Notes: generated from the sequence alone by a model not told the origin. Shown: positions 2,741-56,382, counted from the stretch's first letter. The stretch is DNA of 64,000 bases from a bacterium (GCA_029551285.1 JAKPFT010000087.1:168-64167); one strand, 5' to 3'. Numbers and translations are program-made.

Positions 2741-2768
2741 CTTGGCCTCCGGTCCTGAATATTCTCAG

Positions 2769-19775: not shown

Positions 19776-19795
19776 GTAATCCCGGCCGGGATTAT
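19776..19795. terminator. Perfect 16-bp palindrome (AATCCCGGCCGGGATT) between convergent genes; candidate bidirectional terminator
   Basis: Palindrome seen directly after both stop codons (17737..19710 on plus, 19795..20808 on minus). No strong U-tract. Coordinates approximate. Confidence 0.35.
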
Positions 19796-20819: not shown

Positions 20820-22895
20820 TCAGAATTCACACGTCTGCTTCCAGCAGTGGGCCAGCGTGGCCGGCGAGAAAAACTCATCCAGTTCGTTAAGGTCGTGACC
20901 CAGGTAGAGGACTTGCTGCGGCCGGCTGCCGTAACGGAACACGGTGATACCTTTACAGTTAGATTTCCAGGCCATCAAAAAAATCTTTCTGACATCGGCC
21001 ACGGTGGCTTCCGCCGGAAGATTCACCGTCTTGGAGACAGCGTTATCAGTGTATTTCTGGAAGGCAGCCTGCATCTTCAGGTGCTGGGTGGGAGAAAGGT
21101 CAAAGGCCGTAACAAAGAGCCGTCGCAGATGTTCAGGAATACCGGGCAAACCAGCCAGACTTCCCCGGGTCATTACCTGGCGCATCAGAGAGACGCTGAG
21201 TATGCCGGCTTTTTCCGCTGCCCGCTCAAAGACCGGATTCACTTCCAGAAATGTCCGGCCATTCAGGATGCGCCGGAGAAAAGTTAGTCCAAAAAAGGGT
21301 TCAATACCGCTGGAACAGTTAGCAATCACACTGATGGTGCCGGTAGGCGCGATGGTTGTTCTCGTCGCATGGCGCAGGGCCTGGACTTTTCTGTGGTAGC
21401 GGCTCAGGGGAAAATTCGGGAAAGAACCTCTTTCCTCACCCAGACGACAGGAGTAAGAAAAGGCTGTCTGGTTGATGAACTTCATCACCTCTTCCGCTAA
21501 CTCAAAACTCTTCTGGCTGCCATAGGCAAGACCAAGCTGGGCGAGAGTGTCGGCCCAGCCCATGATGCCCAGTCCAATCTTCCGGTTAGCCCGGGTAATC
21601 TGTTCCACCTGGGGCAGCGGAAAACGGTTGACTTCAATAACGTCGTCCAGGAAGCGCACTGCCAGTTCCACCAGTTGTTTCAATTTTTCCCAGTTAATTT
21701 TATCTTTCTCCACCACCCTGGTTAGATTGATGGAACCCAGATTACACGATTCAAAAGGTAAAAGTGGTTGTTCTCCACAGGGATTACAGGCTTCAATTTT
21801 GCCCAGGCCCGGGGTGGGATTGGCGCGATTGACGGCATCCAGGAAAATCAATCCCGGTTCTCCGCTCTCCCAGGCGCATTGGGCCATCATCTCAAAAACT
21901 TCTCTGGCCGGTAATCTTCTGGTGGTCTGGTTGGTACGCGGGTTAATCAGGGGGTAATCCTGCCGCTGCAGCACCCTTTTCAAAAAATCGTCGGTGACCG
22001 CCACGGAGAGATTGAAATTGGTAAATCGCTGTGTCCTTTTGGCCGCGATGAACTCTAAGATGTCCGGGTGGTCTACCCTCAAAATCCCCATGTTGGCTCC
22101 GCGGCGACGGCCTCCCTGTTTCACCACCGAAGTAGCCGCATCAAAAATTTCCATGAAAGACAGGGGGCCGGAAGCCTGCCCCCGCGTAGAAGCTACCAGG
22201 TCTCCGCGAGGTCTCAACCGGGAAAAGGAAAAGCCTGTTCCCCCTCCGCTCTGGTGAATCAACGCCATGTTCTTCAGGGCTTCAAAAATTCCCTCAATGG
22301 AGTCCTCAACCGGTAGCACAAAACAGGCGGAAAGCTGTCCCAGACTGGTTCCAGCATTCATCAGGGTTGGAGAATTGGGCAGAAACTCCAGGTTGGTCAT
22401 CAGGGAAAAGAATTTCTCCTCGTATTCAGAAACGCTGCCGCCAAAATTGCTTTCCCCTGAAGCCACATGATGAGCCACCCGACGGAAAAGTTCTTCTGGT
22501 TTTTCCACCACCTGGCCATTGAGTCGCAGCAGGTACCGCTCTTTAAGTACTGCTGCGGCCGTTACCGAAAGTTTGAGGCGTCCCTCCACTCCCAGAACAG
22601 TTTTGCTCTCTCTGAGAAGGCGGCGCTGATCGCGGTAACGAATGTAGGCTGAGGCCACCGGCGCAAGATTGTTCTCCATCAGCACCTGTTCCACTGTATC
22701 CTGAATTTCCTCTACGTGGGGATAGCCACCGGGTGTCTTCTTTAGCTTCTCCAGGACACATTGAGTAAGATAGGCTGCTCTTCCCGGAGCCGTTAAGTGA
22801 CAGGCAGCGAGGGCCTTGCTGATGGCAGTTTCAATTCTAACTGGAGAAAATTTCTCTAAGGATCCGTCCCGTTTCCGGACGCGAGTAAGCTTCAT
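20820..22895 (-). CDS. nrdJ: Class II adenosylcobalamin-dependent ribonucleotide reductase with N-terminal ATP-cone
   Basis: 691 aa. ATP-cone at the N-terminus (VRKRDGSLEKFSPVRIETAISKA). Catalytic core has CNPCGEQ and NLGSINL-type blocks. Start overlaps the upstream PDZ gene by 4 nt (ATGA). Confidence 0.85.
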   Translation of the reverse strand: MKLTRVRKRDGSLEKFSPVRIETAISKALAACHLTAPGRAAYLTQCVLEKLKKTPGGYPHVEEIQDTVEQVLMENNLAPVASAYIRYRDQRRLLRESKTVLGVEGRLKLSVTAAAVLKERYLLRLNGQVVEKPEELFRRVAHHVASGESNFGGSVSEYEEKFFSLMTNLEFLPNSPTLMNAGTSLGQLSACFVLPVEDSIEGIFEALKNMALIHQSGGGTGFSFSRLRPRGDLVASTRGQASGPLSFMEIFDAATSVVKQGGRRRGANMGILRVDHPDILEFIAAKRTQRFTNFNLSVAVTDDFLKRVLQRQDYPLINPRTNQTTRRLPAREVFEMMAQCAWESGEPGLIFLDAVNRANPTPGLGKIEACNPCGEQPLLPFESCNLGSINLTRVVEKDKINWEKLKQLVELAVRFLDDVIEVNRFPLPQVEQITRANRKIGLGIMGWADTLAQLGLAYGSQKSFELAEEVMKFINQTAFSYSCRLGEERGSFPNFPLSRYHRKVQALRHATRTTIAPTGTISVIANCSSGIEPFFGLTFLRRILNGRTFLEVNPVFERAAEKAGILSVSLMRQVMTRGSLAGLPGIPEHLRRLFVTAFDLSPTQHLKMQAAFQKYTDNAVSKTVNLPAEATVADVRKIFLMAWKSNCKGITVFRYGSRPQQVLYLGHDLNELDEFFSPATLAHCWKQTCEF

Positions 22896-23710
22896 CGCAG
22901 GTGGTAACTTAAAAGAAGAGGTGTGTTGTTACGGATTACTTCTACCGTGACAGTTTTTGTGGCTGAATTCAGAACCTGCTGATAGACCGCAAAAGCTCTG
23001 GCCAGACTGTCAATCAGCACACCGTTGACCCGGCGGATGATATCGCCGCTGCGCAACCCGTACTGGTAGGGCAGGCTATTTTCCGGCACCTGGCTGACCC
23101 GGAAGCCCTCTACCCTGCCCTCTTCGGTGATAAACGGGGACACCTTGAAGTTTTCCATAAGGTTGGGCGTGTCTCTCAGTTGGTTCAGCACTTCAGAGAC
23201 AGATACAGCCAAGGGTTCCTGAGCCACCGGCGGAGCCGTTGTTGCCTCCCGGCCTGACACAGGCAAAACAACTGTCTTAGTGGCCGGTTCTTTCCCCTTT
23301 TCTATGGTAACTGCCGCCGGCTGTGTTCCTGAAGAAGCCAGCGTTGTTTCTGGCAGGGACAGGCTAACTTCTTTCCCCTCGTATTCAAAAACCACCCTTT
23401 TTTCTTCAATGCGGGCGATGACGGCGCCAGCGCAGACAATTTCTCCTTGCCGGAAAAGGCTCTCTTCGTTCTGGTTTTTTAACCGCAGGACAGCCATGGA
23501 ACCAACCTGAGGAGCGTAGATGATGCCTTTTAACTCAACCAGAGTGTCAAGAGCCGGTGCTGGCTGAGGTTTAAGAATACTGTACCTGACAGGCGTTTTC
23601 GGTGGCGCCGGCTGGGTAAAAACATTTTTCTTGAGGATTAAATTTGTGTCTGTCCGGGAAGCAGCCGCCGCCAGAATAAGGCAAAGAAAGGTTAAGAACA
23701 CTTTTCTCAT
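22892..23710 (-). CDS. Secreted PDZ-domain protein (GspC-like architecture)
   Basis: 272 aa. N-terminal signal peptide, Pro/Thr-rich linker and a C-terminal PDZ-like segment (GFRVSQV...GLRSGDIIRRVNGVLI). Confidence 0.5.
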   Translation of the reverse strand: MRKVFLTFLCLILAAAASRTDTNLILKKNVFTQPAPPKTPVRYSILKPQPAPALDTLVELKGIIYAPQVGSMAVLRLKNQNEESLFRQGEIVCAGAVIARIEEKRVVFEYEGKEVSLSLPETTLASSGTQPAAVTIEKGKEPATKTVVLPVSGREATTAPPVAQEPLAVSVSEVLNQLRDTPNLMENFKVSPFITEEGRVEGFRVSQVPENSLPYQYGLRSGDIIRRVNGVLIDSLARAFAVYQQVLNSATKTVTVEVIRNNTPLLLSYHLR

Positions 23711-24900
23711 GAACCAGCTCCGAGAGCCAGTTGTAAGATACCAATCAGGTCAAAGATGTCAATACTGGCATCCTGGTTGAGGTCAGCCGCGGAGATAAGT
23801 TTCTCCGGATAAGGCACCTGGTAGGTGAAACTGCCCAGGGAAACTTCACTTTCAGTGGCCATTCTCAGACATAAAACGACATCAATGACATTGACCGTCC
23901 CGTCAAAATTCAGGTCGCCTTTTCTCACCACCGGGTCGGTGAGAGAAAAATTTACGCTGGAAAGATTCTGCCCCGGAAGAACCGTTACTGGATTGTCAGG
24001 ATAGAAATGAGAAGGCTCGGTCAAAACATCAAACAAGCCGTCACCGTTGGCGTCAAGAAAAGCCCAGAGGTAGTAGCATCCGGTGGAAACAGAAGAGATG
24101 GTAAAAGGACCAGGACCGGGAGAGACCGTTGAATAAGCCGGGACGCTCAGGTAAGAGTTCGCGGGAAGCAGATAGATGAAGATTAAACCAGCACAGTTTC
24201 CCTGATAGTCTATCCATCCCGAGATTGAACCCGGTTGTGTCTGGACGGTGTAGGTGGCGGAAGCGACACTGCTGGGATTAAGTCCGGACTTGTAAGCACG
24301 CGCCTTCAGGCTACAACTGCTGGTGAGATTCAATGGTGTGGTATAGAGCGGCGAAGTTAAGCCCGGGTCACTGCCGTCAGTGGTATATCTGATGGTGGCC
24401 CCTGGTGTCTCGCAGGAAAGAGAGACATTGACCGGGCTGGTGTAACTACCTGGCGCCGGCGAAAAAATAGGTTCAATGACTGTATTAACCTGGGTAATTC
24501 TCTGGCTGCCAGAGATCGGAATCTTCATTTCTCCGCTGGCGCTGATTGTTCCGGAAAACTTACAGGTACCTGCGGCGTTTGAAGGAATCTGAATCGTATA
24601 ACTGATGGTAAAGGAACTCACCCCGGAGGTACTGTACTGCAGCCAGGTGTAGGTCTGGCCGATTACTTTAATATAGGAAGGTACAGCCGAAGAAATGGTC
24701 CAGCCTTCAGGCACGGTTTCGTTGACAATCACGGCGGCCGGCGGGTTGGCCGGGTCAGTACTCACATTGATGGTGACCTGGACTGAACCACCGGGAACGA
24801 AGGTTGCGGGAAGGTTTCTGCTGGCGCTGGTACCTGCCTGAAGACCGTTCACCAGGGGGACCAGCAGAAGCAAAACACAGAAGATGCAGGTTTTACACAT
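23707..24900 (-). CDS. Secreted surface protein with CHB_HEX_C-like (Fn3-like) domain and C-terminal dockerin-like domain
   Basis: 397 aa. Signal peptide. FSPAPGSY...IRYTTDGSDP...KARAYKSGLNPS matches the chitobiase/hexosaminidase C-terminal-like domain. C-terminal duplicated Ca-binding dockerin segments (DLNFDGTVNVIDVVLCLRMA ... DLNQDASIDIFDLIGILQLA). Confidence 0.6.
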   Translation of the reverse strand: MCKTCIFCVLLLLVPLVNGLQAGTSASRNLPATFVPGGSVQVTINVSTDPANPPAAVIVNETVPEGWTISSAVPSYIKVIGQTYTWLQYSTSGVSSFTISYTIQIPSNAAGTCKFSGTISASGEMKIPISGSQRITQVNTVIEPIFSPAPGSYTSPVNVSLSCETPGATIRYTTDGSDPGLTSPLYTTPLNLTSSCSLKARAYKSGLNPSSVASATYTVQTQPGSISGWIDYQGNCAGLIFIYLLPANSYLSVPAYSTVSPGPGPFTISSVSTGCYYLWAFLDANGDGLFDVLTEPSHFYPDNPVTVLPGQNLSSVNFSLTDPVVRKGDLNFDGTVNVIDVVLCLRMATESEVSLGSFTYQVPYPEKLISAADLNQDASIDIFDLIGILQLALGAGS

Positions 24901-24916
24901 GGCTTTTCCCTGAAAA

Positions 24917-25549
24917 CTAATTTCTGGTAATCTTTCTTAAGAGGAGGATGACATCAAGGATATCCACGATGTCATTGCCATCAAGGTCAGCCCGGTTTAG
25001 AACCGGTGGTTCCATTCCCAGAGCCATTCGAAGACAGAGGGCAAGGTCAACAATATCAAGATTTTTGTCCCCGCTGATGTCGCCGGCGATGTAGATAATT
25101 TCTCCGGAAGTCAGGTTGACATTACGCGCCCACCCGTCGGCCCAGCTATTGGAATCCGGACCAAGGCACACGGCCTGGTATTCTATACCTTTTCGAGCAT
25201 CCCAGATTCTGAAGGTAATCGTATCACCCTGGCGGGCGCCCTCATCCACTGTCGGTGTGGTGATGTCATCACCGTAGACTTCCATAAAGCCGTAGAATCC
25301 GGCAGTGTGAATTACAAATCTGCCGCAGAGCACACCATTTGGGTCAAAAGCTGCCACCTCATCGCCAGGCTGTCCGGCCACTCCATTAATACTCACCTGC
25401 CCGTAGAAAGGGCATGAAGTTGGCGTGTTGATGGGAGTTGCAAAGTGGGCTGCCAGCAAAAGGTTGCTTTCAACGAAGAGAATAGCACCGACGACAAACC
25501 CGGTTTGTCTCTTTCTCCACCCCACTTTGCTCCTTTCTATTGTGACCAT
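24917..25549 (-). CDS. Small secreted protein: one FYG/Cys-Cys module plus dockerin-like tail
   Basis: 210 aa. Module FYGQVSINGVAGQPGDEVAAFDPNGVLCG...VYGDD.TTPT.DEGA..GDTITFRIW. C-terminal GDISGDKNLDIVDLALCLRMALG...ADLDGNDIVDILDVILLLRKI. Confidence 0.55.
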   Translation of the reverse strand: MVTIERSKVGWRKRQTGFVVGAILFVESNLLLAAHFATPINTPTSCPFYGQVSINGVAGQPGDEVAAFDPNGVLCGRFVIHTAGFYGFMEVYGDDITTPTVDEGARQGDTITFRIWDARKGIEYQAVCLGPDSNSWADGWARNVNLTSGEIIYIAGDISGDKNLDIVDLALCLRMALGMEPPVLNRADLDGNDIVDILDVILLLRKITRN

Positions 25550-28500
25550 CTCAGTTGCCCATTCTCAGAGAGTTTAATCCAGTAACCGTAACCAGGAGCA
25601 AAGTAATGCAGGGTGTTGAAGATCGGCGTATCTGGCTTGTAAGTATGATAACCGTCAGCGTCAAAACTGCGGATGTAGGTAAACTGGCCAGTTAGAGAAG
25701 TGAGAACAGCACCAACATCATCAACCTTGATGGCTTCCGTGACATCTTCCGGTAGAGTTACTAACGGTGCAGTAGCAGTATCATAGTAACACACTGGTGC
25801 CCAGCACCCGACCAGAACCCAGCGGCGATTCGCATCCACTGTCACAGAAAGAGTGTCAGTCGGTGAGATTTTGGCGCCAAGCAGTTCCAGGGTAACGTCT
25901 TCTTTCATCTTAATCCAGTATCCATAGCCAGGCGCTAAGTAATTTAGAGTGTTGTACTGTGGTGTGTCAGGATAATAGGTATGGTAGCCGTCTTTATCAA
26001 AACTGCGGATGACCTCAAACTTGCCAGCGATGGAAGAAAGAGCCTGGGCAATATCGTTTACCGGAACCGCCTCTGTTCCGGAAAGGGTAGCAACATCTGG
26101 CGGGTTTTGGCTGGAGTAGTAAAGACGGTTCACCGAGAAACTGAACAAATTCCAGCCGGCCTTAAGTGGAATCCTCTGGCCCACATCAAGGTTCACCTGC
26201 CGGGAGTCACCGTTTGCAGTCCAGGTAGCATTATCCGGTCCCAGGGGTTTGGCTGTGTAAGTCTTTTTCTCGCTTGCCTTCCAGATTCTGAAAGTCAGAC
26301 CTTCACCGGGACTGGCTCCTTCATCAACGCCGGAAGTATCCGGGTCGTCGCCGTAAACCAGTAAATCACCGTAAGAACCGGTGTTGGTAACCAGGAAACT
26401 TCCACAGCACACGCCGCTGCTATCATAAACAGCAATTTCATCGCCGGCTGCGGCATCCACAGTGAAAATTTTAACGGTGCCGTGGAACCTGACCGAATAA
26501 TTACTCTGGGTGAAGGGCAGGAAATGGTAGAAGTTGGCCGTGACTTCTTTAGGCCCATTCATGGTGACACTGACCGGGTTAGTGGTTCCGGAAAGACTGC
26601 CGCTCCACCCGGTGAAAGTATAGTCACTGCTGGCTGTGGCCTGGACCTGCACCTGGCTGCCGCTGTCGTACCAGTTGCTTTCTGGACTGACACTTCCGCC
26701 AAAAGAGTTATTCACGCCGGTGGTGAGGTAGTACTGGGTCGTCCAGGAAAGATTCAGGGTTTTAGCCTCATTCATCAGCAGAGAACCGGAAGCCGGTGAA
26801 GTCACGTATCTGATGCCGGTCCCTCCGGAAACAGGTGTGGTGACCGACCAGTTGGCCGTAGTTCCTGCATCGTACCAGCCTTCGCCCTGTGGATTGCCGT
26901 ATTCAGAGTTAATTTTCAGGTAATACTGCGTTTTCCAGAGCCAGGTAACGGCAGAAGGTTCGTTGATGGTAAAAGTCAGGGAACTGTCAGTTCCGCTGGC
27001 TGGCGCACTGCCAGTACCGGTCCAGCCGGTGCAGACATATTGCGTGGAACCCACAGTCACTGGTGTGGTCACTGCAGAACCGACCAGGGAACCAGCGTTG
27101 TACCAGTCTTCACCACTGGGGCTGCCATGCTGGGAAATCACCGTGAAGTAGTACTGGGTCGTCCAGGAAATTACCACGGTATCAGGCTCATTCATGACCT
27201 TGCTTCCAGAACTCGGAGCGGTGACAAAACGAATTCCTGTTCCGCCTGACCACGGACTGGTGACCGACCAGTTGGCTGTAGTTCCCGCATCGTACCAGCC
27301 TTCGCCCTGTGGATTACCATGTTCGGAAACGACGCTGAGGTAGTACTGGGTCGTCCAGGAAATAGTTACTGTGTTCGGCGCGTTCATGACTACAGAACCG
27401 GAGGAGGGTCTGGCTTCGTATCTTGTGCCGGTTGTGCCTGCTACTGGCGAGTCAACCGACCAGTTAGCCGTGCTTCCCGCGTTATACCAGCCAGCGCCAG
27501 CAGGGCTGCCATGAGCAGAAACAATCGTCAGGTAGTACTGGGTAACCCAGGTAATGTTGACAGTTTTTGGCCCATCCATAAAGACGCTTCCAGAAGCTGG
27601 AATAGCTACATACTGAACGCCAGTAGCACCAGCCACCGGTGAGTTTACTGACCAGTTGGCCGAAGTTCCTTCATTATACCAGCCAGCACCAACCGGCGTG
27701 CCGTAAGTTGAGTTAAGCGTCAGGTAGTACTGCGTAATCCAGGAAATGGTGATAGTTTTTGGCCCATCCATGAGTACGCTGCCAGAAGAAGGAACAGCCA
27801 CATAGCGCACACCCTCAGCCCCGGCTACCGGGGAAGTGACTGACCAGTTGGCCGTAGTTCCTGCATCGTACCAGCCAGCGCCAACCGGTGTGCCGTAAGC
27901 CGAAACTATGGTCAGAAGATACTGCGTTTTCCAGTTCCAGGTGATGGTGGAGTTGTTGGTAATGGTGAAGGTTACGGAAGTAGCCGTACCGCTGGTCGGC
28001 ACATCTCCGGTTCCAGTCCAGCCGGTGCAGACATACCGGATGCCGGTTTCCCCAGCCACCGGAGAGACCACCGAGGCTGTTACTTGCGTCAGGGTGTCGT
28101 AGATGTGAAGGCCAGCCGAAGGTTCTGGAGAACCATAAGCACTGCTGACCGTAAGACTGGCGCCGGTGGAAAGATTTACTTCCAGGGGGTCTGCGGATGG
28201 GTCCCACAACGGAGTGACCGAGGCAATGGCCAGATACTCTTTCTGTTCACTGGCGTCCCAGATACGGAAGGTGATGGTGTCACCATTTTCCGCTCCTTCA
28301 TCCTCAGCCGGGGTAGTGCTGTCATCCCCGTAAACTGGAAGATACCCGTAATAGCCAGCATGTTCCACGACAAAAGCGCCGCAGCAAACCCCCTGCGGGT
28401 CAAAAGCGCCGACTTCGTCTCCTGACTGAGCCGGCACTCCGTTGATGGTAATCACTCCATAAAATTCTCTCACTGAGGGTGTTTTCGCCACCGGTGTGTA

Positions 28501-29847
28501 ACGACGGCCAGTAAGAGAAAAGTTGGCCATCACAGTTTTGCCACTATTCATGGTCACGGTGGCCGGGTTATCTGTCCCGGTTAAGTCTCCGCTCCAGCCC
28601 GTGAAGGTGAAACCGCTGTTAGCCACCGCAGTCACCTGAACACTTTCGCCGCTGTCATACCAGTTACTGCTGGGTGTTACCGAACCGCCCGCGGCTGGAT
28701 TGGTCTGCGTCGTCAAAAGGTACTGGACCTTCCAGTTCCAGGTGATGGTGGAATTCTGGGTAATGGTGAAGGTTACGGAAGTAGCCGTACCGCTGGCCGG
28801 CACATCTCCGGTTCCAGTCCAGCCGGTGCAGACATATCTGGTGTTACCGGCAGTTACCGGCGAAAAAACAGAAGCGGTTACTGAAGTGCCGGTGGCGTAA
28901 GAGTGGCTGCCGACACCCGGGTCAGGTGAACCGTAAGCGCTGGCCACGGTCAGATTAACCTGACCAAGAAAGACCGCGGTAACTGTTCTGGGCGCATTAA
29001 CTGTGACTACGGTCGGATTGGTAGACCCAGAAAGGTCTCCACTCCAGTGGTCAAAAACATAGCTGGGGTTGGCTGTCGCCTGGACCTGCACCTGGCTGCC
29101 GCTGTCGTACCAGTTGCTGGCTGGCGTGACTGTTCCGGCCTGAACCGGGTCAGCCTGCGTGGTTAAGTAATACTGGACCTTCCAGTTCCAGGTGATGGTG
29201 GAGTTGTTGGTAATGGTGAAGGTTACGGAAGTAGCCGTACCGCTGGCCGGCACATCTCCGGTTCCAGTCCATCCGGTGCAGACATAGCGCACTCCAGAGC
29301 CAGCATCAACCGGCGAGGTGACTGAGGCAGTAACTTGAGTTCCGGTATTATAGTAATGAATACCCACGCCCGGGTTGGGCGAGCCGTAGGTGCTGGTGAC
29401 ACTTAAGGTTAACTGGCTGACGCTGGTGCTCAGATTAACATTCAGCTTGCCCTTGTCCACCCAGACAGGACTGTCCGGACCCAGCAGTACCGCATCAAAT
29501 ACCTGATTGGTGCTGGCCTGCCAGATTTTGAAGGTAATCGTATCACCTGGCTGAGCGCCTTCATCTATTGTTGGAGTGGTGGAATCATCGCCATAAACTG
29601 CCATGAAACCGTAGAAACCCTCGGTGTTCACCGTGAAAACACCGCAGCAAACTCCCTGCGGGTCAAAAGCCGCCACCTCATCGCCGGGTTGAGCCGGACT
29701 GCCATTTACCTGAACTGTGCCGTAAAAGTCGCAGGAAGTCGGCGACGTTCCCACGATGGAGAAGTGGCCGGAGAAACACAACTGACCAAAAAGAAGAGAA
29801 ACAGCCAGGACTGCAAACCCCAATCCAATCTGCTTTTGAGGTCTCAT
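25537..29847 (-). CDS. Large secreted repeat protein (1436 aa): FYG/Cys-Cys modules, divergent InlB B-repeat-like units, six tandem ~69-aa repeats, C-terminal tandem GWNL/APGYGYWIK modules
   Basis: Signal peptide. Three FYG...GVCCG...VYGDD...TFRIW modules. Recurrent (Y/V)VCTGWTGTGDVPASGTATSVTFTI units. Tandem TQYYLT.VSA.G.P.GAGWY.AG.TANWSV.SPVAG.. repeats. Thr/Ser-rich throughout. Confidence 0.65.
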   Translation of the reverse strand: MRPQKQIGLGFAVLAVSLLFGQLCFSGHFSIVGTSPTSCDFYGTVQVNGSPAQPGDEVAAFDPQGVCCGVFTVNTEGFYGFMAVYGDDSTTPTIDEGAQPGDTITFKIWQASTNQVFDAVLLGPDSPVWVDKGKLNVNLSTSVSQLTLSVTSTYGSPNPGVGIHYYNTGTQVTASVTSPVDAGSGVRYVCTGWTGTGDVPASGTATSVTFTITNNSTITWNWKVQYYLTTQADPVQAGTVTPASNWYDSGSQVQVQATANPSYVFDHWSGDLSGSTNPTVVTVNAPRTVTAVFLGQVNLTVASAYGSPDPGVGSHSYATGTSVTASVFSPVTAGNTRYVCTGWTGTGDVPASGTATSVTFTITQNSTITWNWKVQYLLTTQTNPAAGGSVTPSSNWYDSGESVQVTAVANSGFTFTGWSGDLTGTDNPATVTMNSGKTVMANFSLTGRRYTPVAKTPSVREFYGVITINGVPAQSGDEVGAFDPQGVCCGAFVVEHAGYYGYLPVYGDDSTTPAEDEGAENGDTITFRIWDASEQKEYLAIASVTPLWDPSADPLEVNLSTGASLTVSSAYGSPEPSAGLHIYDTLTQVTASVVSPVAGETGIRYVCTGWTGTGDVPTSGTATSVTFTITNNSTITWNWKTQYLLTIVSAYGTPVGAGWYDAGTTANWSVTSPVAGAEGVRYVAVPSSGSVLMDGPKTITISWITQYYLTLNSTYGTPVGAGWYNEGTSANWSVNSPVAGATGVQYVAIPASGSVFMDGPKTVNITWVTQYYLTIVSAHGSPAGAGWYNAGSTANWSVDSPVAGTTGTRYEARPSSGSVVMNAPNTVTISWTTQYYLSVVSEHGNPQGEGWYDAGTTANWSVTSPWSGGTGIRFVTAPSSGSKVMNEPDTVVISWTTQYYFTVISQHGSPSGEDWYNAGSLVGSAVTTPVTVGSTQYVCTGWTGTGSAPASGTDSSLTFTINEPSAVTWLWKTQYYLKINSEYGNPQGEGWYDAGTTANWSVTTPVSGGTGIRYVTSPASGSLLMNEAKTLNLSWTTQYYLTTGVNNSFGGSVSPESNWYDSGSQVQVQATASSDYTFTGWSGSLSGTTNPVSVTMNGPKEVTANFYHFLPFTQSNYSVRFHGTVKIFTVDAAAGDEIAVYDSSGVCCGSFLVTNTGSYGDLLVYGDDPDTSGVDEGASPGEGLTFRIWKASEKKTYTAKPLGPDNATWTANGDSRQVNLDVGQRIPLKAGWNLFSFSVNRLYYSSQNPPDVATLSGTEAVPVNDIAQALSSIAGKFEVIRSFDKDGYHTYYPDTPQYNTLNYLAPGYGYWIKMKEDVTLELLGAKISPTDTLSVTVDANRRWVLVGCWAPVCYYDTATAPLVTLPEDVTEAIKVDDVGAVLTSLTGQFTYIRSFDADGYHTYKPDTPIFNTLHYFAPGYGYWIKLSENGQLRWSQ
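26700..27930 (-). repeat. Intragenic tandem DNA repeats (period ~207 bp, about 6 units) inside the 1436-aa gene, plus three near-identical ~110-bp segments further 5' (about 27.93, 28.72 and 29.18 kb)
   Basis: Recurring strings such as GTAGTACTGGGTCGTCCAGGAAA, and CCGACCAGTTGGCCGTAGTTCCTGCATCGTACCAGCC identical at two places. CCAGTTCCAGGTGATGGTGGAGTTGTTGGTAATGGTGAAGGTTACGGAAGTAGCCGTACCGCTGG occurs three times. Coordinates approximate. Confidence 0.6.
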
Positions 29848-29862: not shown

Positions 29863-30261
29863 TTACTCAACGACGAAAAGATTGACCTGGTGACGGTCAT
29901 GGTTCTTCGTCCAGACAGCATTTTCCGGCTTATCAACCACCGCAGTTTTGCCGTTAATCTTGAAGGTAATAACATCTCCAGGTTCAGCCCCCTCATCTCT
30001 GGTGGTGGTGGGGTCATCGCCGTAGACGCAAAGATACCCGAAGACGCCTAATTTTTTTACGATGAACTTCCCGCAGAGGTTACCCTGAGGGTCGTAGGCG
30101 GTGATGACATCGCCTTCTTTGACCGGTGCATTGTTCACCATCGCCTGGCCGTAAAAATCAACACCTTCAGGGGTGGGAGTAACTCTTTCCTCAGCCAGCA
30201 AAATAGCGGTTAACATCAGCGACAGAAGGAGCCCGAAGATCATATGCCCTCTCATCTTCAC
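29863..30261 (-). CDS. Small secreted protein consisting of a single FYG/Cys module
   Basis: 132 aa. Signal peptide then FYGQAMVNNAPVKEGDVITAYDPQGNLCG...VYGDDPTTTRDEGAEPGDVITFKI. Confidence 0.5.
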   Translation of the reverse strand: MKMRGHMIFGLLLSLMLTAILLAEERVTPTPEGVDFYGQAMVNNAPVKEGDVITAYDPQGNLCGKFIVKKLGVFGYLCVYGDDPTTTRDEGAEPGDVITFKINGKTAVVDKPENAVWTKNHDRHQVNLFVVE

Positions 30262-30301: not shown

Positions 30302-32185
30302 TCACTGTGTTCCCCATCGGAAGGAACGTGAAGTTGTCATTTTTATCCAGTAACCGTATCCCGGCCCGAAGTAGTGCAGGGTATTGAAAACAGGATTTAC
30401 TGCCGGGTCAAAGGTCCTGGCGCCATAAGCGTCAAAGCCGCGTACCACGCTGTAGTATCCGGCAATACTGTTTAAGGCATTGGCCACGCTGGGAAGGGAA
30501 ACAAAACTGTTCACTCCTTCCGGAAAGGAAACTGCCGGTTGACTGCCATTATCGTAATATACATTTGTGTCCCAGTATCCCACTAAATTCCAGCCAGTAT
30601 TCAGGGTGAGGGTGGCTGAAGGATTAACCGGCTCGCCTTCTAATTCAAGGGTTGCGGCTTCGCTCATCTTAATCCAGTAGCCATAGCCGGGTGCCAGATA
30701 ATGCAGGGTATTAAACACAGGATTGACCGTGGGGTCAAAGGTCATGGCGCCAGAGGCGTCAAAGCCGCGGACCACCGTATATTTACCGGCAATGGAAGTT
30801 AGAACATCTCCAATGCTGTTGACTTTCTGGTAATTGACCCCGGCCAACATCGCCACGTTCGGCTGAGCGGCACTGTCGTAAAAACAGGTGTTGAGTGGAA
30901 AACTGATTAGGTTCCAGCCGGCGACCAGAGGCATTCTCCAGCGATTAATTCCGTTAAGGTTAACATTGCGATTGACACCATCCTGCCAGAGGATGCTGTC
31001 GGGGCCAAGCGCGGTGGCCAGGTAGATTTTTTTCTCCGCGGCTGACCAGATTTTGAAGGTGATGGTATCGCCGTTTTGCGCGCCTTCATCCCTGGTGGGA
31101 GTCGTCGGGTCATCGCCGTAAACAGGCATGAAACCGTAAAAACCAGCTGTCGTAACCTTCCATGTTCCACAGCAGACACCCTGCGGGTCAAAGGCGGCAA
31201 TCATATCACCTGGCTGGACATTCACGCTGTTAATCGTCGCGTTTCCATAGAAATTGATCCAGGTGTTGGTCGTGGTTAGTATCCCGAACGGAAAAAGATA
31301 CTCTGAGGTAGCAATGCTGCTGGGGTTCATGCCTTCTTTGAAGGCTCTGGCCTTGATGGTAGTGGCTGTAGCGACACTCAGCGGCGTGGTGTAAACAGTT
31401 GAAGTCTCCGTAGGGTCAGAGCCGTCGGTGGTATAGCGAATCGTTGCGCCGCTGGTAACGCAGGTAATAGCAACACTGAGACTGCTGCTGTAAGCGCCGG
31501 GGTTTGGACTGAAGGTTGGGGTAGCCACTGTTTCCAAGATTGTATAAAGCCCGCAGGCTATCTGACTGGGATTCATCCCTTCCTTGAAGGCTCTGGCTTT
31601 GATGGTCGTGGTGGTATTAACAGCCACCGGTGTCGTGTAAATGGTTGAAGTCTCCGTGGGGTCAGAGCCGTCGGTGGTATAACGGATGGAGGCCCCGCTG
31701 GTGCTGCAGGTGATGGCTACTGATTGTGCGCTAGCGTAACTGCCGGGAGGTGGCGAAAACTGCGGCGTGGAAACAGTGGAATTGTCAAGAATTACGGTGT
31801 CGCCGACGATGTTGTAAGTGCCGTAATCGTCAACGACAGAGCCGGTGAAAACTTTGTCGCCGCTATCACCAGCAGGAACGCTGACAGTGTAAGTAATCTG
31901 ATAGGGCACATCTATCGGGTTCGTACTGTAATTGAGCCACTTGTAGCGGTTGTCTTCCGAAATGTAAGTGCTATAAGGCGGGGTGGAGGAAACAATGGTC
32001 CAGCCTTGCGGCAGATACTCCCGAATAACGATGCTCACCACATGGTCAGGAATGACGGTGAGGGTAACCTGAAAAGTAGTGCCGGCCACATAACCGTCAG
32101 GCAGATTTCTGGTGACGCTGGTAGCGGAGAAGACCTGGCTGGAAAGAAAAAGGGAAAGAAACAATAAAGAAAACTTTCTCGTCAT
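30302..32185 (-). CDS. Secreted surface protein (about 627 aa from the internal Met): two CHB_HEX_C-like domains, one FYG/Cys-Cys module, C-terminal tandem GWNL/APGYGYWIK modules
   Basis: Start chosen at MTRKFSLLFLSLFL (signal peptide). Duplicated FSPPPGSY...IRYTTDGSDPTETST(I/V)YTTP...KARAFKEGMNPS. Same C-terminal module pair as the 1436-aa protein. Confidence 0.55.
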   Translation of the reverse strand: MTRKFSLLFLSLFLSSQVFSATSVTRNLPDGYVAGTTFQVTLTVIPDHVVSIVIREYLPQGWTIVSSTPPYSTYISEDNRYKWLNYSTNPIDVPYQITYTVSVPAGDSGDKVFTGSVVDDYGTYNIVGDTVILDNSTVSTPQFSPPPGSYASAQSVAITCSTSGASIRYTTDGSDPTETSTIYTTPVAVNTTTTIKARAFKEGMNPSQIACGLYTILETVATPTFSPNPGAYSSSLSVAITCVTSGATIRYTTDGSDPTETSTVYTTPLSVATATTIKARAFKEGMNPSSIATSEYLFPFGILTTTNTWINFYGNATINSVNVQPGDMIAAFDPQGVCCGTWKVTTAGFYGFMPVYGDDPTTPTRDEGAQNGDTITFKIWSAAEKKIYLATALGPDSILWQDGVNRNVNLNGINRWRMPLVAGWNLISFPLNTCFYDSAAQPNVAMLAGVNYQKVNSIGDVLTSIAGKYTVVRGFDASGAMTFDPTVNPVFNTLHYLAPGYGYWIKMSEAATLELEGEPVNPSATLTLNTGWNLVGYWDTNVYYDNGSQPAVSFPEGVNSFVSLPSVANALNSIAGYYSVVRGFDAYGARTFDPAVNPVFNTLHYFGPGYGYWIKMTTSRSFRWGTQ

Positions 32186-32330
32186 GGAAGGCTCCTTCGG
32201 TTGGCAGGGTTTCTGGCTCATTTTTCTATTGTTTTTAGCCGCACTTCACCTATGCTGCAATTTTACCCCGGCACACCCTTTTCTGTCAAGTCGCTTTTTT
32301 TAGACGCTAAAATACCCGCATAAAGGCATG

Positions 32331-32590
32331 GTTAACGAGGGAAGATTTCAAGACACGGTAGCCGATGGCGCAGTTACAAGACAAGCACCCAAAGCGGCAG
32401 CGTTCGGTAAGCGTCCCCCAAAAGGCAATCCGGGACGGCCACCTTACCCGGCGGTGTCTCCAGTTCGCCGCATGACGAATGAGTTCGCGCCAGCAACCGA
32501 TTGGGTGTGTAATCTTGTCTGCAACAAGGCGTGTGGGCAGAAATCTTCCCGAAGTTAGACACCTTTTTTTCACAACCTTCGTTATCTCGT
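32331..32590 (-). repeat. Copy 3 (long form, minus orientation) of the repeated element, in the 5' leader of the 30302..32185 gene
   Basis: Reverse complement begins ...GGTGTCTAACTTCGGGAAGATTTCTGCCCACACGCC and ends ...GCTGCCGCTTTGGGTGCTTGTCTTGTAACTGCGCC...GAAATCTTCCCTCGTTAACC. Carries about 105 bp of extra internal sequence homologous to copy 4. Confidence 0.75.
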
Positions 32591-34174
32591 GCTTTTAGTT
32601 AGACGCCGATACTTTGACCTCAGTATAGTTAGCAGCCAGAAGCCAACCATCAGATACGGAAGAAGTCCTTTTAGAAAGAGAGCAGCCAGCCAGACCACCG
32701 GATAAAGCATCAGGCGAACGATGGCTCTAAGCCAGCCTTTTCTGGAAATGAAGGAAGCCGCGGCTGGCCCTTTCCGGTAATACCAGGTGACAAAAGCCCG
32801 GCCAACTTCAGTTGGACAGAGTACTCTATCCCGGAAAAGACGCAACACTTCAATCTCCTTGCTCAACGGCGAGCCGAAAGCAGCCGTGGCGATAAAACAG
32901 CCACCACTGTCAGCGCTGCGGACCACCGGGCCGGAAGGGTCAACAATCACTCCATTAGCCACTCCATCAGCGTCGCCTGAGCCACCGTCAGTAAGGGTCA
33001 CAATGGCTACATTGCCGGTCATTTCAACCTGGGAATACTCCTGCCATCGCTGAGTGGCTGCCGCGCTCTCATCATACTTGTACCATCTGCTGCCTCCAGG
33101 CAGAACTTCCGGGAAGATAAAGCGCAACCTCACTGTTTGCCCTTCTGGCACTTCCACGCGGCTGAGAAAGACACCATAAGGAGCCCGGAGAAAATCAGGC
33201 AGATTCTCAGCCTCCATGCCAGAAAAGTAGGTTACGGGATATCCATCAGGAGATTCCAGCAGAACAGCCTTATCGTGGAAGGAGATAATTTTCGTATCCT
33301 GAGGTAAAGGCAGGTCCGGATTGTATCCGTAATGGGAAAGGTCTTCCCCGGCCGGCTCCTGTTGGTCAGGGATACCATTGCCGTCGGTATCTTCTGTTTG
33401 ACTGCGGGGCACCGTGGTTATGGCTGCTTCTGCGGGTTGGGAACTTCGGCCAGCGCTGTCGGTGGCCTGAACCCTGATGATATAAGAAGTTTCTGGTTGC
33501 AGGATGCAGGAGCCAATCCAGGCAGCATTAACCTGGCCTGAGGTAACGCTTGTGGCAAAGACAATTGTCTCGTTGTTAGCGCAACGTATTTCCCAGGAGC
33601 TGGAAGCCGCAGGGGTGTTGAGCGGACTCAAATACTGCCCTGTCACCTTAATCGGAATGTCTACGGCAAGAGCGCTGGCGTTCAGGGCCTGGCCGTCCTG
33701 ATTGAAGAATTGCAAATTGTAAAAGAAGGGCTGGCCGTCAGAAGTAAACTGCTCACCGCCGATGGCAGTCTCATACTGATAATTGGAGACGTCAATCCAG
33801 CGACAAGTTCCCTGAAATGTTCTGGCGCCGCTGGCCTGCTCTGGAATCTGAAGTTGATAGCTAATGTCCATAGAAGTGTCACTGATGACATCGTGGAATT
33901 CCCACTTGATTTCGCCGGTCTCAGGAAGGAACCGACTCTGGACAGGGTCTGCCGTGACTAAGTTCCAGCCCACCGGGACATATTCGGTTACAATTACGGC
34001 ATTGGGCAGGTTGGCTTCATCCACTTCAAGGTTCAGCGTCACCGTGAGACTGCTGCCAGGCTGGTAGGCCACCGGCAAGGTTCTGGTAGCCGTCACTGTC
34101 TGAGCAAATTGAGCGAAGGAAAAGGATGGAAGGAAAAGAAGAAGCACAAGCAATAAACCAGCAACCTTTCTCAT
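32582..34174 (-). CDS. Secreted protein with a C-terminal Cys-containing hydrophobic/basic tail (GGCFIATAAFGS...TM...KYRRLTKSTR); putative surface-anchored protein
   Basis: Start taken at the internal MRKVAGLLLVLLLF, whose ATG overlaps the upstream stop as ATGA. The C-terminal 110 aa contain a conserved Cys motif, a TM helix and a basic tail, the layout of a protein-sorting or anchor signal. Confidence 0.5.
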   Translation of the reverse strand: MRKVAGLLLVLLLFLPSFSFAQFAQTVTATRTLPVAYQPGSSLTVTLNLEVDEANLPNAVIVTEYVPVGWNLVTADPVQSRFLPETGEIKWEFHDVISDTSMDISYQLQIPEQASGARTFQGTCRWIDVSNYQYETAIGGEQFTSDGQPFFYNLQFFNQDGQALNASALAVDIPIKVTGQYLSPLNTPAASSSWEIRCANNETIVFATSVTSGQVNAAWIGSCILQPETSYIIRVQATDSAGRSSQPAEAAITTVPRSQTEDTDGNGIPDQQEPAGEDLSHYGYNPDLPLPQDTKIISFHDKAVLLESPDGYPVTYFSGMEAENLPDFLRAPYGVFLSRVEVPEGQTVRLRFIFPEVLPGGSRWYKYDESAAATQRWQEYSQVEMTGNVAIVTLTDGGSGDADGVANGVIVDPSGPVVRSADSGGCFIATAAFGSPLSKEIEVLRLFRDRVLCPTEVGRAFVTWYYRKGPAAASFISRKGWLRAIVRLMLYPVVWLAALFLKGLLPYLMVGFWLLTILRSKYRRLTKSTR

Positions 34175-36825
34175 GGTCCCCCCTGCTTTTGGAAGACTGG
34201 CAAGCGGCATCTTTGATTCACTGACTGAACCTGACCGTAAGTTGTCTGTTCCGGTGCGCTGATGGTGAAAAAACCGCTACTTCCGCTCACTCCAGGCAAG
34301 TCTTTACTGGCTACCCGAATTTGATAATCGGCTCCTGCCGGCAGTGTCGCTGGAATACTCCACGGACAGAAACCTTCGCCCTGCTGGCCAGGGCTGACCG
34401 TGGTGATGGTACCAAGAAGAAGACCTGATTTCCACAACTGCACCGTAACCTGTGAACCCGGGAAACCCTGGTATTGCCAGCGGATAGTTTGACTGCTGCC
34501 GGCCGGCCAGATTTCGCCGGCCATGGGCGCCACTACGGCGATACTTCCATGAGAAATAGAAAAGGACCCGCTTTCGGCAAACAGAGAGGGATAACGATAA
34601 CTGGTCACCCTGATTAGATAGTTATCCCCCGGAGTCAGGTTCAGCGGTATTGCCCAGGTCTGAGTTCCTTCTCCGGCTTGGCCGACGCAGGAACCGGCGG
34701 AGATCAGTCCCTTCCTTTTTCCGCCTTGATAAAGTTCCATCCTTACCTGATTGCCCGGGTCTCCAGTGTACTGCCAGCGGATGGAAGCTGTCGTTCCGGT
34801 ATACCAGACCGCGCCTGGTTCCGGCGCCACCACCGCGATGCTTTTCTTATGGATGCTGAAAAATTGGGCGCTGGCATCACTGACCCAGGGGTACTCCTTG
34901 CTGGTGATGCGCATCCGGTAGCGGCTGCCTTCCGCAATCCCGGCTGGCTTCCAGGGATAACTGCCCTGGCCTTCCCGGCCAATGCTGACGCCATCAGAGA
35001 CTATTGCGGCTACTTCCTCTCCGTCCAGCAGGGCAATTTCCACATTACGGCCGGCCTGGCCGGTGTACTGCCAGCGGATGAGTTGAAGGCTGTCCCTGTC
35101 CCAGGACTCACCGCCAGCCGGCGAAAGAACTTTTAACCAGGCCAGTGGCTGAGTGATGGAGAGGGAAAAATCCCGGCGGTCACTCCCCGGTGGAGTGGAA
35201 CTATCTGTGACCTGAATCTGGAACGAGTAAACGCCGGCACTGGCCGGTGTTCCTTCCACACAGGCCTGGCTGTTGGCCGTGGTCAGGGTCAAGCCTGGCG
35301 GCAACTGGCCGCTAACCAGTGACCAGAAATAGGGTTTCTCACCGCCGTCAGCCAGGACCCTGTTCCGGTAAAATCTGCCAGTATAGCCGCTGGCCAGAGA
35401 GGGAGTAATAATTTTTACCTGGCCACCGACGACATCAAAGGCGTTGCTGCTGCCGCTTTTTCCCTGTGCCGCCACAGTGATGACATTGCCTGCTTTAACG
35501 GCATTGATGGTCACATTCCCTTCCCAGTAACCCTCGGTAAAATTGCCGGTGCTGGCAGGCGAAATAGTCCCGGTCAGGTCAGAAAGGGAAACCACACCAT
35601 TGAACTGGCGATAAAGTTGGCCACTCCTGTCCCGGGCCGTAATTTTCAGCAGGAAGGCAACGCCTGTCTTCTGGGGAGAAGAAATGGGGGAGACCTCAAA
35701 TCTTTCCAGGCTGGGCGGGGCACCAAGCGCATAAAAAGTTCCATCCGAACAACCTGAGAAAACCGTGCCGTCAGCGCCGATGGCTGGCGAGGCAGCACCT
35801 GCGGGACTGCCGAGAGCAAACTTCCACTTCAGCCGTCCGTTGCGGTCTATGCAATAAAGATGGCCGTCGTTACACCCGAAATAAAAGTTGTTCTGGCTGT
35901 CCACAGCTGGTGAAGATTCTACAGTGTTCTCTGTCCGGTAGAGCCACTTAAGTTTGCCGAAGCCATCCAGCGCTGCGAGGAAATTTCCGGCGCCAACATA
36001 GATGCGGCCGTTGAAATCTATGGCTGGAGAAGAGACCAGCGCCGCCCCGAAACTGTACTTCCACCTTTCTGTTCCCCCGCCGCTGACACCATAAAAGTAA
36101 CCGGCCTGGTTGCCCAGATAGATTGTCCCGTCAGGGCCAACTGAAGGAGCGTGGGTTATGGCTGAGCCGGTCACCACCCGGAAAAGGAGTTTTCCTTCCG
36201 GGTTGAATCCATAAAGACTGCCATCAGAAGAACCGACATAGATTTCCCCGGAAAAACCAATCACCGGAGAGGAGAAAACAGGGCCTTCTGTCTGGAATTT
36301 CCAGCGGACGGTCCCGTCAGATTTCAAGGCGTAGAGGCACCGATCACCGGAACCAACATAGATAGTCCCCTCACTGTCTATCACCGGAGAAGAGAAATTA
36401 CCCCCGGTGGTGGTCAGTTTCCACTTCAAACTTCCGGTGGCAGAAACAGCGCAAAGCGCGCCTTCTCCGGAACTGACATAGGTGCTCAGATAGACCGTAC
36501 CGTCACTGCCCAGGGCCGGCGAGGAACGGATGGTGCCGCCTGGACGAAAACTCCAGCGTAAGGTGCCATCAGGCGCTAAGGCATAAAGAGTGCCTTTTTC
36601 TGAGGTAAAATAAACGCTGCCGTCGGAACCTATAGCCGGGGAAGAGACAATCGCGGCGTCGGCTTTGAACTTCCATTTCAGGGAAGGTTGTTCTGGTCCA
36701 GGCACTGTGGCCCGGCCGGTGTGTCTGGCATCGTGGCGAAACATTGGCCAGACTTCGGATGCTTCGGGATAGCCGCAGGAAAAAATCAAAGAAAGACAGG
36801 CAACCAGCCAGATTTTTCCGCTCAT
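34171..36825 (-). CDS. Lipoprotein with PQQ-like beta-propeller repeats followed by three Kre9/KNH-like Ig-type repeats
   Basis: Start placed at MSGKIWLVACLSLIFSCGYP (lipobox LIFSC), preceded by a GGAGGAG RBS; the longer track ORF is an N-terminal extension. Repeated GTLYA...DGT(L/V)RW(K/S)F blocks. Three G(Q/F)(A/P)G..V.(I/M/V).L..(G/S)..(repeat) segments. Confidence 0.6.
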   Translation of the reverse strand: MSGKIWLVACLSLIFSCGYPEASEVWPMFRHDARHTGRATVPGPEQPSLKWKFKADAAIVSSPAIGSDGSVYFTSEKGTLYALAPDGTLRWSFRPGGTIRSSPALGSDGTVYLSTYVSSGEGALCAVSATGSLKWKLTTTGGNFSSPVIDSEGTIYVGSGDRCLYALKSDGTVRWKFQTEGPVFSSPVIGFSGEIYVGSSDGSLYGFNPEGKLLFRVVTGSAITHAPSVGPDGTIYLGNQAGYFYGVSGGGTERWKYSFGAALVSSPAIDFNGRIYVGAGNFLAALDGFGKLKWLYRTENTVESSPAVDSQNNFYFGCNDGHLYCIDRNGRLKWKFALGSPAGAASPAIGADGTVFSGCSDGTFYALGAPPSLERFEVSPISSPQKTGVAFLLKITARDRSGQLYRQFNGVVSLSDLTGTISPASTGNFTEGYWEGNVTINAVKAGNVITVAAQGKSGSSNAFDVVGGQVKIITPSLASGYTGRFYRNRVLADGGEKPYFWSLVSGQLPPGLTLTTANSQACVEGTPASAGVYSFQIQVTDSSTPPGSDRRDFSLSITQPLAWLKVLSPAGGESWDRDSLQLIRWQYTGQAGRNVEIALLDGEEVAAIVSDGVSIGREGQGSYPWKPAGIAEGSRYRMRITSKEYPWVSDASAQFFSIHKKSIAVVAPEPGAVWYTGTTASIRWQYTGDPGNQVRMELYQGGKRKGLISAGSCVGQAGEGTQTWAIPLNLTPGDNYLIRVTSYRYPSLFAESGSFSISHGSIAVVAPMAGEIWPAGSSQTIRWQYQGFPGSQVTVQLWKSGLLLGTITTVSPGQQGEGFCPWSIPATLPAGADYQIRVASKDLPGVSGSSGFFTISAPEQTTYGQVQSVNQRCRLPVFQKQGGP

Positions 36826-37635: not shown

Positions 37636-37637
37636 GC

Positions 37638-40092: not shown

Positions 40093-40114
40093 TTCAAAGG
40101 AGTTCGGGAACAAC

Positions 40115-56285: not shown

Positions 56286-56382
56286 TTGGTCCTATGTCGG
56301 AATTTTAGAATTTGACCTGGCTTGTTGGCTGATGTATCCTTACTCCCGTGGCCTTTTCCGGCAGGGCTATCCCGGTAATCCT

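Follow-up and report, generated by a model that had tools for sequence, protein, structure and literature searches.

The DNA considered here is a 64,000-nucleotide stretch from a bacterium (GCA_029551285.1 JAKPFT010000087.1:168-64167), termed the window below, and the subject is three secreted proteins whose C-terminal tails resemble dockerins. The minus strand from ~19.8 to 37 kb carries a compact run of genes encoding secreted proteins. Two of the dockerin-like tails end proteins in this run, and the third ends a 4515-aa giant encoded at 42278-55825 (-). An earlier reading of the sequence alone had assigned the locus to a Wood-Ljungdahl anaerobe, and that context is present: carbon monoxide dehydrogenase, acetyl-CoA synthase, both corrinoid protein subunits, a methyltransferase, RACo and CooC-like ATPases are encoded at ~1.8-16.9 kb.

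The first carrier is a 397-aa secreted protein (23707..24900, minus strand). It has a signal peptide, a DUF11-like N-terminal module (24490-24834; the N-module below), a CHB_HEX_C_1/Fn3_assoc domain (24241-24471), a beta domain termed 'mid' (23929-24231) and the dockerin module (23710..23928, aa 325-397). The second, a 210-aa secreted protein (24917..25549, minus strand), consists of a signal peptide, a beta-sandwich module termed FYG (25100-25447) and the tail (24920..25099, aa 151-210). The third is the giant surface protein itself (42278..55825, minus strand), which has a signal peptide and extended stretches of repeats without annotation; its annotated modules are InlB-B-like repeats, three BACON-like domains, an RCC1 beta-propeller region (~42521-44575) and a terminal dockerin (42281..42475, minus strand as in the other two, aa 4451-4515). 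All three carriers begin with a hydrophobic, signal-peptide-like N-terminus that can be read off the sequence.

Scanned for motifs in six frames, the window contains six EF-hand-like loops and three CLRMA pentapeptides, and every one of them falls within the C-terminal 60-75 residues of the 397-, 210- and 4515-aa open reading frames (ORFs). A hidden Markov model (HMM) of the tail, applied unfiltered to every six-frame fragment, matches the same three ORFs at 84-90 bits (88.9 bits for the giant), and the next best match has E=4.1. Both scans thus bear out the proposal that these ORFs, and no others in the window, end in a duplicated loop-helix tail. In each tail a segment of ~22 residues is present twice, and each segment is a 12-residue loop followed by a helix, as in Dockerin type I. 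The loops were judged by acidic or amide residues at positions 1, 3, 5, 9 and 12; Asp occupies positions 1 and 12 of each of the six loops, two loops per tail. The calcium loops are at 23878-23916 and 23746-23784 in the 397-aa protein, at 25043-25081 and 24950-24988 in the 210-aa protein and at 42416-42454 and 42323-42361 in the giant, with CLRMA at 23857-23871, 25022-25036 and 42395-42409, respectively. The 397-aa tail is of a long-linker type, with an insert 'Y..PYPE.L' separating both segments.

Two consensus motifs proposed earlier need correction. The loop consensus D.N.DG..N..D is exact only for the first loop of the 397-aa protein; the remaining loops read D.S.DK..D..D, D.N.DD..D..D and so on. 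The helix motif (V/L)(L/V)CLRMA(L/T) stands as far as CLRMA is concerned, which lies in the first helix of all three tails, but its prefix fits one tail only, as the preceding residues are VL, AL and MV.

Are these tails dockerins? With the Pfam family Dockerin_1 (PF00404; gathering score 22.9 bits), the scan that the sequence-only reading had suggested, the 397-aa tail passes at 23.9 bits, and the 210-aa (16.4 bits) and 4515-aa (18.4 bits) tails fall short. Dockerin_1 is the only or best Pfam family for the latter two. A single-sequence phmmer search of the PDB with the 397-aa tail returns dockerin-bearing proteins exclusively. When a profile built from seven tails (A1) is compared with solved structures, dockerins lead the list (5lxv_B, 5.6e-8), and the first generic EF-hand protein appears at 5e-4. 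It should be pointed out that the NCBI name for the 210-aa protein is already 'dockerin type I repeat-containing protein'.

Structural modelling points the same way. A Foldseek search with an AlphaFold (AF2) model of the whole 210-aa protein has no dockerin among its matches. Because that search is dominated by the FYG sandwich, the tail, which is the lowest-scoring of the three, was modelled by itself with a 37-sequence alignment. The predicted model (pLDDT, the AlphaFold confidence score, 93.5; helices at 19-29, 37-40 and 50-61) has the three-helix dockerin fold, and the 35 best PDB matches to it in Foldseek are dockerins throughout, with TM (template modelling) scores of 0.51-0.85. The leading ones are type I (2ccl_B, TM 0.81, root-mean-square deviation (rmsd) 1.4 Å; 8x39, TM 0.85), and the type I complexes 2ccl, 1ohz and 5nrk are included. 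Calmodulin-type proteins reach only TM 0.26-0.32 at a Foldseek probability of ~0.05. In the model no helix enters the first loop, unlike in a canonical EF-hand pair of the calmodulin/S100 type, where an entering helix precedes each loop. Pfam, the profile search of solved structures and the predicted fold agree on a dockerin type, and on sequence and model the three tails would be genuine type-I-like dockerin modules of a non-cellulosomal subfamily.

That subfamily extends well beyond the locus. The tail profile finds 51 metagenomic matches among 5.8 billion proteins, mostly fragments at contig ends; most have PF00404 precomputed and many carry an exact CLRMA. Many members read ...DISDVILCLRMAIGLD...ADMNxDGxVDISDVILVLRKAIGLD, and the subfamily consensus is GDINxDGxVDISDVILCLRMAIGLD...ADMNxDGxVDISDVILVLRKAIGLD. 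The hosts are Omnitrophota, Ratteibacteria, TA06 and unclassified metagenome-assembled genomes (MAGs). Orthologues of the 210-aa protein (P0002, P0003; 55-56% identical) retain CLRMA, and the long-linker variant recurs, as 'Y..PYP.WL' amid the segments, in P0018, P0027, P0028, P0237 and P0180. The combination of RCC1 with a dockerin is also found elsewhere, in a 236-aa protein of locus L004 and in P0022 and P0025. To judge from these alignments, CLRMA is the signature of a widespread subfamily and not a locus-specific recognition code.

In relatives this subfamily is tightly linked to cohesins. The loci of two dockerin matches, L004 and L007, hold several Pfam Cohesin proteins. L004 (38% GC) was recovered from a JGI sample that also contains a copy of the window. 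In it a two-cohesin gene precedes one for a C11 peptidase with a dockerin; the locus further encodes an RCC1-dockerin protein, a beta-helix-dockerin protein, a 227-aa protein that combines cohesin and dockerin, a multi-cohesin 1043-aa protein with CHB_HEX_C_1 domains, a two-cohesin protein terminating in short GWNL...GYW modules and a CHB_HEX_C_1 protein with a CFI-box-CTERM anchor. To escape circularity, searches were also seeded on cohesin only. In the 12 GTDB genome loci found in this manner (five Omnitrophota MAGs, TA06, Ratteibacteria, Desulfurellales, Abditibacteriales and unclassified MAGs), a dockerin of the A1 type lies at most 6 kb away in every case (12/12). The same holds for the presence of an A1-type dockerin in 19 of the 21 cohesin-seeded metagenome loci of at least 2 kb.

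One gene pair recurs in these loci: a two-cohesin gene and then a C11 (clostripain-like) peptidase gene of ~660 codons with a CLRM-type dockerin. The pair is found in L004 (628-4331), L010, L014, L019, L009, L039 and L034, and the peptidases are 36-84% identical among loci of Ratteibacteria, Omnitrophota and unclassified lineages. No description of it was found in the literature searched.

The window has much in common with the cohesin loci. CHB_HEX_C_1, 'mid', InlB-B-like repeats, RCC1 with dockerin and CFI-box-CTERM are shared. The 'mid' domain of the 397-aa protein matches cohesin proteins of L004, L007, L010, L013 and L014 (E 1e-13 to 1e-21), and the InlB-B-like repeats of a 1436-aa protein from the same run of genes share 45-63% identity with repeats of relatives' cohesin-bearing proteins.

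The sequence-only reading had envisaged a surface assembly of the cohesin-dockerin kind, and this is the best reading of the data, since in relatives the genes of the CLRMA-type subfamily lie together with genes for cohesins that Pfam detects. The carriers, i.e. the DUF11-like/CHB_HEX_C protein, the small FYG beta-sandwich protein and the 4515-aa RCC1-propeller giant, would be exported via their N-terminal signal peptides, presumably by Sec. A step resembling the type II secretion system (T2SS), suggested by an adjacent GspC-like gene, would then take them across the outer membrane of a probably diderm cell. Outside the cell the tail might fold round two Ca2+ ions into a three-helix dockerin; the fold is predicted, and calcium binding would follow from the loop residues. 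The tail would then dock its carrier onto a cohesin of a surface scaffold protein. The cohesin partner presumably has its gene in another part of the genome, because relatives' CLRMA-type dockerins adjoin cohesin genes. Taken as a whole, the explanation that dockerin tails plug these surface proteins into a cohesin scaffold encoded outside the window appears reasonably probable from sequence, model and analogy.

What kind of assembly might it be? Family scans find no glycoside hydrolase, lyase or esterase catalytic domain on the carriers. The cargo is made up of DUF11-like, CHB_HEX_C_1, FYG, RCC1, BACON-like and InlB-B-like modules, and polysaccharide-degrading cargo is absent. Since no catalytic carbohydrate-active enzyme domain is attached, the assembly looks like an adhesion or surface-display complex, by analogy, and not like a cellulosome.

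Several points weigh against a cohesin-based assembly. No cohesin is present in the window, as the sequence-only reading had noticed: Pfam finds none, and a lineage cohesin HMM (A2, built from relatives' loci) has a best E of 4.2 with filters off. None is found either in an 8.5-kb extension of the right edge (L053), which also has no dockerin, or in the syntenic loci L020-L022; the search for a PF00963 cohesin in the same organism covers ~72 kb of sequence. Cohesin-profile scans of GTDB genomes and JGI metagenomes yield no contig attributable to the window organism, and the best tetranucleotide match among the scanned contigs, L034, has r = 0.62. A cohesin-profile search of the 5.8-billion protein set gives one match, which belongs to another MAG, and none with the tags PK644, PKX93 or PKW42. 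From the dockerin side the linkage is looser, with a cohesin within 10 kb in only three of six dockerin-seeded loci. AlphaFold was trained on solved dockerins, so that the fold match depends in part on the sequence match. In addition, loop positions 10-11 are VI, IV or IL in the window tails vs IS in the cohesin-linked consensus, and the two segments are identical at 7-11 of 22 positions in the window tails vs 14-16 of 22 in relatives. Positions 10-11 are, on C. thermocellum type I numbering, what we take to be cohesin-contact positions. Because these positions deviate and the segments are less symmetric, the specificity of the window tails may differ from that of the cohesin-linked relatives, and a different or single binding mode may apply.

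The nearest lineage with the same gene order, a 1436-like gene and then an FYG-dockerin gene, is that of L020-L022, where no cohesin is seen across up to 9.6 kb. A contig with cohesin, C11 peptidase and CLRMA dockerins, L050, is from the sample of L021 and has a similar GC content, and its tetranucleotide correlation is 0.925 with L020 and 0.907 with L021. As sample, GC and tetranucleotide correlations agree, L050 probably belongs to the L020-L022 lineage, which would thus have a cohesin of its own.

Perhaps the tails are orphan dockerins, which serve as a Ca2+-dependent folding or stabilising module, or which bind envelope or prey-surface material directly. The window has no partner for them, and Peer and co-workers are said to have found many genomes that have dockerin-like modules and no detectable cohesins. 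In half of the dockerin-seeded loci no cohesin lies close by, and dockerins of Omnitrophota have themselves been proposed as adhesins (PMC10066038). Yet the linkage seen from the cohesin side, in 12/12 and 19/21 loci, is very strong. Moreover, the three paralogues carry unrelated cargo and yet have well-conserved helix faces, which suggests a common specific partner. Orphan dockerins are unlikely on balance, if still to be kept in mind.

Distinctly unlikely, too, is that the dockerins are real and the receptor is a lineage-specific module rather than a cohesin. Two candidates come into question, FYG and a C-terminal tandem with the motifs GWNL and APGYGYWIK. FYG is an uncharacterised domain of ~115 aa that is found six times in four proteins, three times in the 1436-aa protein and once each in the 639-, 132- and 210-aa proteins. 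It has no Pfam or NCBIfam match, carries a strongly conserved acidic motif, VYGDDxTTPxxDEGAxxGDxITF, and is modelled as a confident beta-sandwich (AF2 pLDDT 93-97; 88 for the whole 210-aa model). The 1436-aa protein (25537..29847, minus strand) is encoded directly upstream of the 210-aa gene in the same gene string. Its FYG copies are at 29419-29766, 28159-28506 and 26176-26526; InlB-B-like repeats and a C-terminal GWNL/GYGYWIK tandem (25540-26175) complete the protein, and window scans find neither dockerin nor cohesin in it. The 132-aa secreted protein (29863..30261, minus strand) is a signal peptide and one FYG module. The 639-aa protein (30302..32221, minus strand), previously described as a 627-aa protein because a later start had been taken in the same ORF, has an N-module (31775-32125), two CHB_HEX_C_1 domains, FYG (30944-31294) and a GWNL tandem (30305-30937).

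The case for such a receptor lies in the distribution of the two modules. FYG and the 100-aa GWNL modules are present in the window and in L020-L022, where no cohesin is seen, and none of the cohesin-seeded loci has either of them. FYG stands at the head of the 1436-aa repeat protein, a place that a cohesin takes in the homologous repeat proteins of relatives, the 210-aa FYG-dockerin protein parallels the 227-aa cohesin-dockerin protein of L004, and the window's loop positions 10-11 depart from the consensus. However, these absences are seen over ~64 kb and a few short loci, which makes them weak. By structure FYG is weakly like the C-terminal domain of the PapC usher (Foldseek E 4.5e-3) and dioxygenase-type sandwiches, with no cohesin in the top 50 matches of the whole 210-aa model. 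FYG also occurs without a dockerin, fused to a type IX secretion system (T9SS) tail or HYR domains (P0008, P0009), and its acidic motif is more like a ligand site. We know of no non-cohesin dockerin receptor of such a kind.

The GWNL modules are likewise a poor candidate. They are tandem modules of ~100 aa at the extreme C-terminus of the 1436-aa and 639-aa proteins, both of which terminate in ...(L/F)RW(S/G)(T)Q. Similarity searches link the tandem neither with cohesins nor with a family in Pfam or the PDB, and its position is always terminal and anchor-like. The earlier speculation that it is the dockerin partner is not sustained by these properties. Motif-level look-alikes of GWNL...GYW end the two-cohesin protein of L004, and in proteins with DUF11-like N-modules such look-alikes occupy the slot otherwise taken by dockerins, CFI-box or transmembrane anchors and T9SS tails. 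Homology of the window modules with those of L004 was considered and rejected, as hhalign gives a probability of 42% over 18 columns and the HMM misses them. From the position of the look-alikes, and with homology weak, the GWNL tandem may be an alternative C-terminal anchoring or sorting module rather than a dockerin receptor. A bolder scheme combines both ideas into a cohesin-free assembly system, in which the CLRMA dockerins dock onto FYG in cohesin-like positions and GWNL is a new surface anchor. This is more doubtful again.

Very improbable is that the tail serves at the C-terminus as a signal for secretion or sorting, recognised by a neighbouring T2SS protein. The gene next to the 397-aa gene encodes a GspC-like protein (22892..23710, minus strand) with the N-terminal region of T2SS protein C (Pfam T2SSC, 34 bits) and a PDZ domain; it also resembles the NCBIfam family GspC_delta (E 3e-28, under the cutoff). 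The start of this gene and the stop of the 397-aa dockerin gene share 4 nt, and in L020 a full-length homologue (27% identical, E 3e-27) is encoded ~6 kb away from the FYG-dockerin gene. C-terminal peptides are the usual ligands of PDZ domains. T2SS-like loci stand beside giant genes in Omnitrophota as well (bioRxiv 10.1101/2023.11.21.568195). On the other hand, the 1436-, 639- and 132-aa proteins of the same gene string have no such tail, relatives' tails adjoin cohesins, and no GspC-like gene is called in the three cohesin-bearing loci examined. No further T2SS gene is found in scans of the window, and T2SS substrates are recognised folded, without a linear tag. The GspC-like protein is probably part of the export route for the carriers. 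Its lone gene is translationally coupled to the 397-aa dockerin gene at one end and, at the other, to one for an adenosylcobalamin-dependent ribonucleotide reductase (20820-22895, minus strand), after which comes a radical-SAM gene (19795-20808, minus strand). Together they form an odd operon mix.

Generic EF-hand pairs, the outcome that would have undone the proposal of dockerins, deserve next to no credence: two of the three tails do score under the Dockerin_1 gathering threshold and EF-hand proteins occur further down the profile-search list, but all top sequence and structure matches are dockerins, EF-hand proteins reach a TM of just ~0.3, the first loop of the model lacks a preceding helix, and relatives are linked to cohesins.

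The cohesin-dockerin reading can be set against known systems. Non-cellulosomal dockerins are well documented, to go by the passages in which PMC10066038 and PMC8542988 cite Peer et al. (2009). On giant ORFs of Omnitrophota they have been proposed as adhesins (PMC10066038), giant proteins of dockerin type and T2SS-like loci beside giant genes are on record (bioRxiv 10.1101/2023.11.21.568195), and Cloacimonadota have a cellulosome-like dockerin/cohesin system (PMC8542988). The window proteins share with the Omnitrophota and Cloacimonadota systems that dockerins are borne by giant or non-carbohydrate-active surface proteins of anaerobic uncultured bacteria, that T2SS-like genes are near giant genes and that a role in adhesion or surface display is proposed. 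The dockerin subfamily is that of the Omnitrophota MAG loci. The window proteins differ in having a single terminal dockerin instead of many internal repeats, and their locus has the lineage-specific FYG and GWNL modules and no cohesin. The window organism has 53% GC vs 28-42% for most related loci.

The tails also invite comparison with clostridial type I dockerins (PF00404; C. thermocellum Xyn10B, 1ohz/2ccl). Common to both are two ~22-residue segments of a 12-residue calcium loop and a helix, a three-helix fold (predicted here; TM 0.73-0.85, rmsd 1.1-3 Å) and a C-terminal position on secreted proteins. In contrast to the clostridial modules, the window cargo includes no carbohydrate-active enzyme, the first helix has CLRMA with a conserved Cys, loop positions 10-11 are hydrophobic, the segments are just 32-50% identical and no cohesin is nearby. 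The corresponding features of C. thermocellum dockerins are, we assume, LKRY in the first helix and Ser-Thr at loop positions 10-11. The host is probably a diderm Wood-Ljungdahl anaerobe, unlike the cellulolytic Firmicute hosts. Cellulosome adaptor and anchoring scaffoldins (cohesin with dockerin; cohesin with SLH) have a parallel in the 227-aa, 1043-aa and two-cohesin proteins of L004, which follow the same logic. In the window, unlike in scaffoldin systems, DUF11-like or FYG modules fill the cohesin positions, and a scaffold role is only putative.

What is gained can be stated briefly. Surface proteins of an uncultured, acetogen-like Wood-Ljungdahl anaerobe, the 4515-aa giant included, appear to be built for modular docking. 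That dockerins are found on giant proteins of uncultured anaerobes is already known, and the annotation pipeline already recognises the 210-aa protein. As the strategy has been noted for Omnitrophota and Cloacimonadota, the locus adds a lineage and not a principle. The more useful by-product is the tight co-location of CLRMA-type dockerin and cohesin subfamilies across candidate phyla, often with C11 peptidase cargo. These loci offer concrete pairs for probing non-cellulosomal cohesin-dockerin specificity. If the window lineage is truly without cohesins, FYG or GWNL would become candidates for new docking partners.

The N-module was also considered as a partner. It is common to the 397-, 639- and 542-aa proteins, and the guess that it is a divergent cohesin had arisen from the order cohesin-then-CHB_HEX_C_1 in relatives. 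It was rejected: in hhalign, the N-module alignment (A3) vs the cohesin profile A2 has a probability of 0.2%. The N-module belongs to a DUF11/NPCBM_assoc/bMG10-like family of 2466 representative proteins with up to 39 tandem copies, and two homologues bear a cohesin in the same chain, which argues that the N-module itself is no cohesin. Among the top 150 proteins 13 end in a dockerin, and some are an N-module and dockerin alone; others end in GYW-type modules, CFI-box or transmembrane anchors or T9SS tails. Such interchangeable C-termini suggest that the dockerin is one of several alternative C-terminal attachment devices.

The 542-aa protein (32582..34210, minus strand), the third bearer of the N-module (33749-34099), ends in a module of a third kind. 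It has a choice-of-anchor U domain and a CFI-box-CTERM membrane anchor (32585-32905), which consists of GGCFIATAAFGS... plus hydrophobic helices. The NCBIfam matches of the protein are NF041770 (86 bits) and NF041766 (80.8 bits). The same CFI-box ending is on the CHB_HEX_C_1 protein of the cohesin locus L004.

Most of the giant, i.e. aa 1-~1900 and ~2200-3440, has no family match. These regions are recurring units with a motif like 'S/GxGLxLWxDxGDGxFxxxxDxxV', which resembles calcium-binding loops between beta regions. The giant gene is flanked (36898-42277 and 56041-58965) by genes for GT2 and GT4 glycosyltransferases, a methyltransferase and two large membrane/TPR proteins. The multi-pass N-terminal halves of the 720-aa and 974-aa TPR proteins recall, in our estimation, O-antigen/PMT-type glycosyltransferases, and these neighbours may glycosylate surface proteins.

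An uncultured-bacterium protein of >2400 aa in L017 (1-7233) has an unusual, self-complementary layout and ends in cohesin-dockerin-cohesin-dockerin. L017 was taken up as a possible close relative on its similar GC content and rejected, the dockerin being the only thing it has in common with the window.

An IS200-like Y1 transposase is encoded at 58949-59632. At the right end of the window (~62600-64000) the GC content falls from ~54% to ~42%, and the low-GC stretch runs on for at least 9 kb in the JGI copy (L053, 1-9500). This copy has a 421-aa ORF that is transposase/integrase-like as judged by sequence, an Amidase_3 protein and several ORFs rich in Lys, Glu and Asn. The low-GC end may be a mobile island or a foreign insert.

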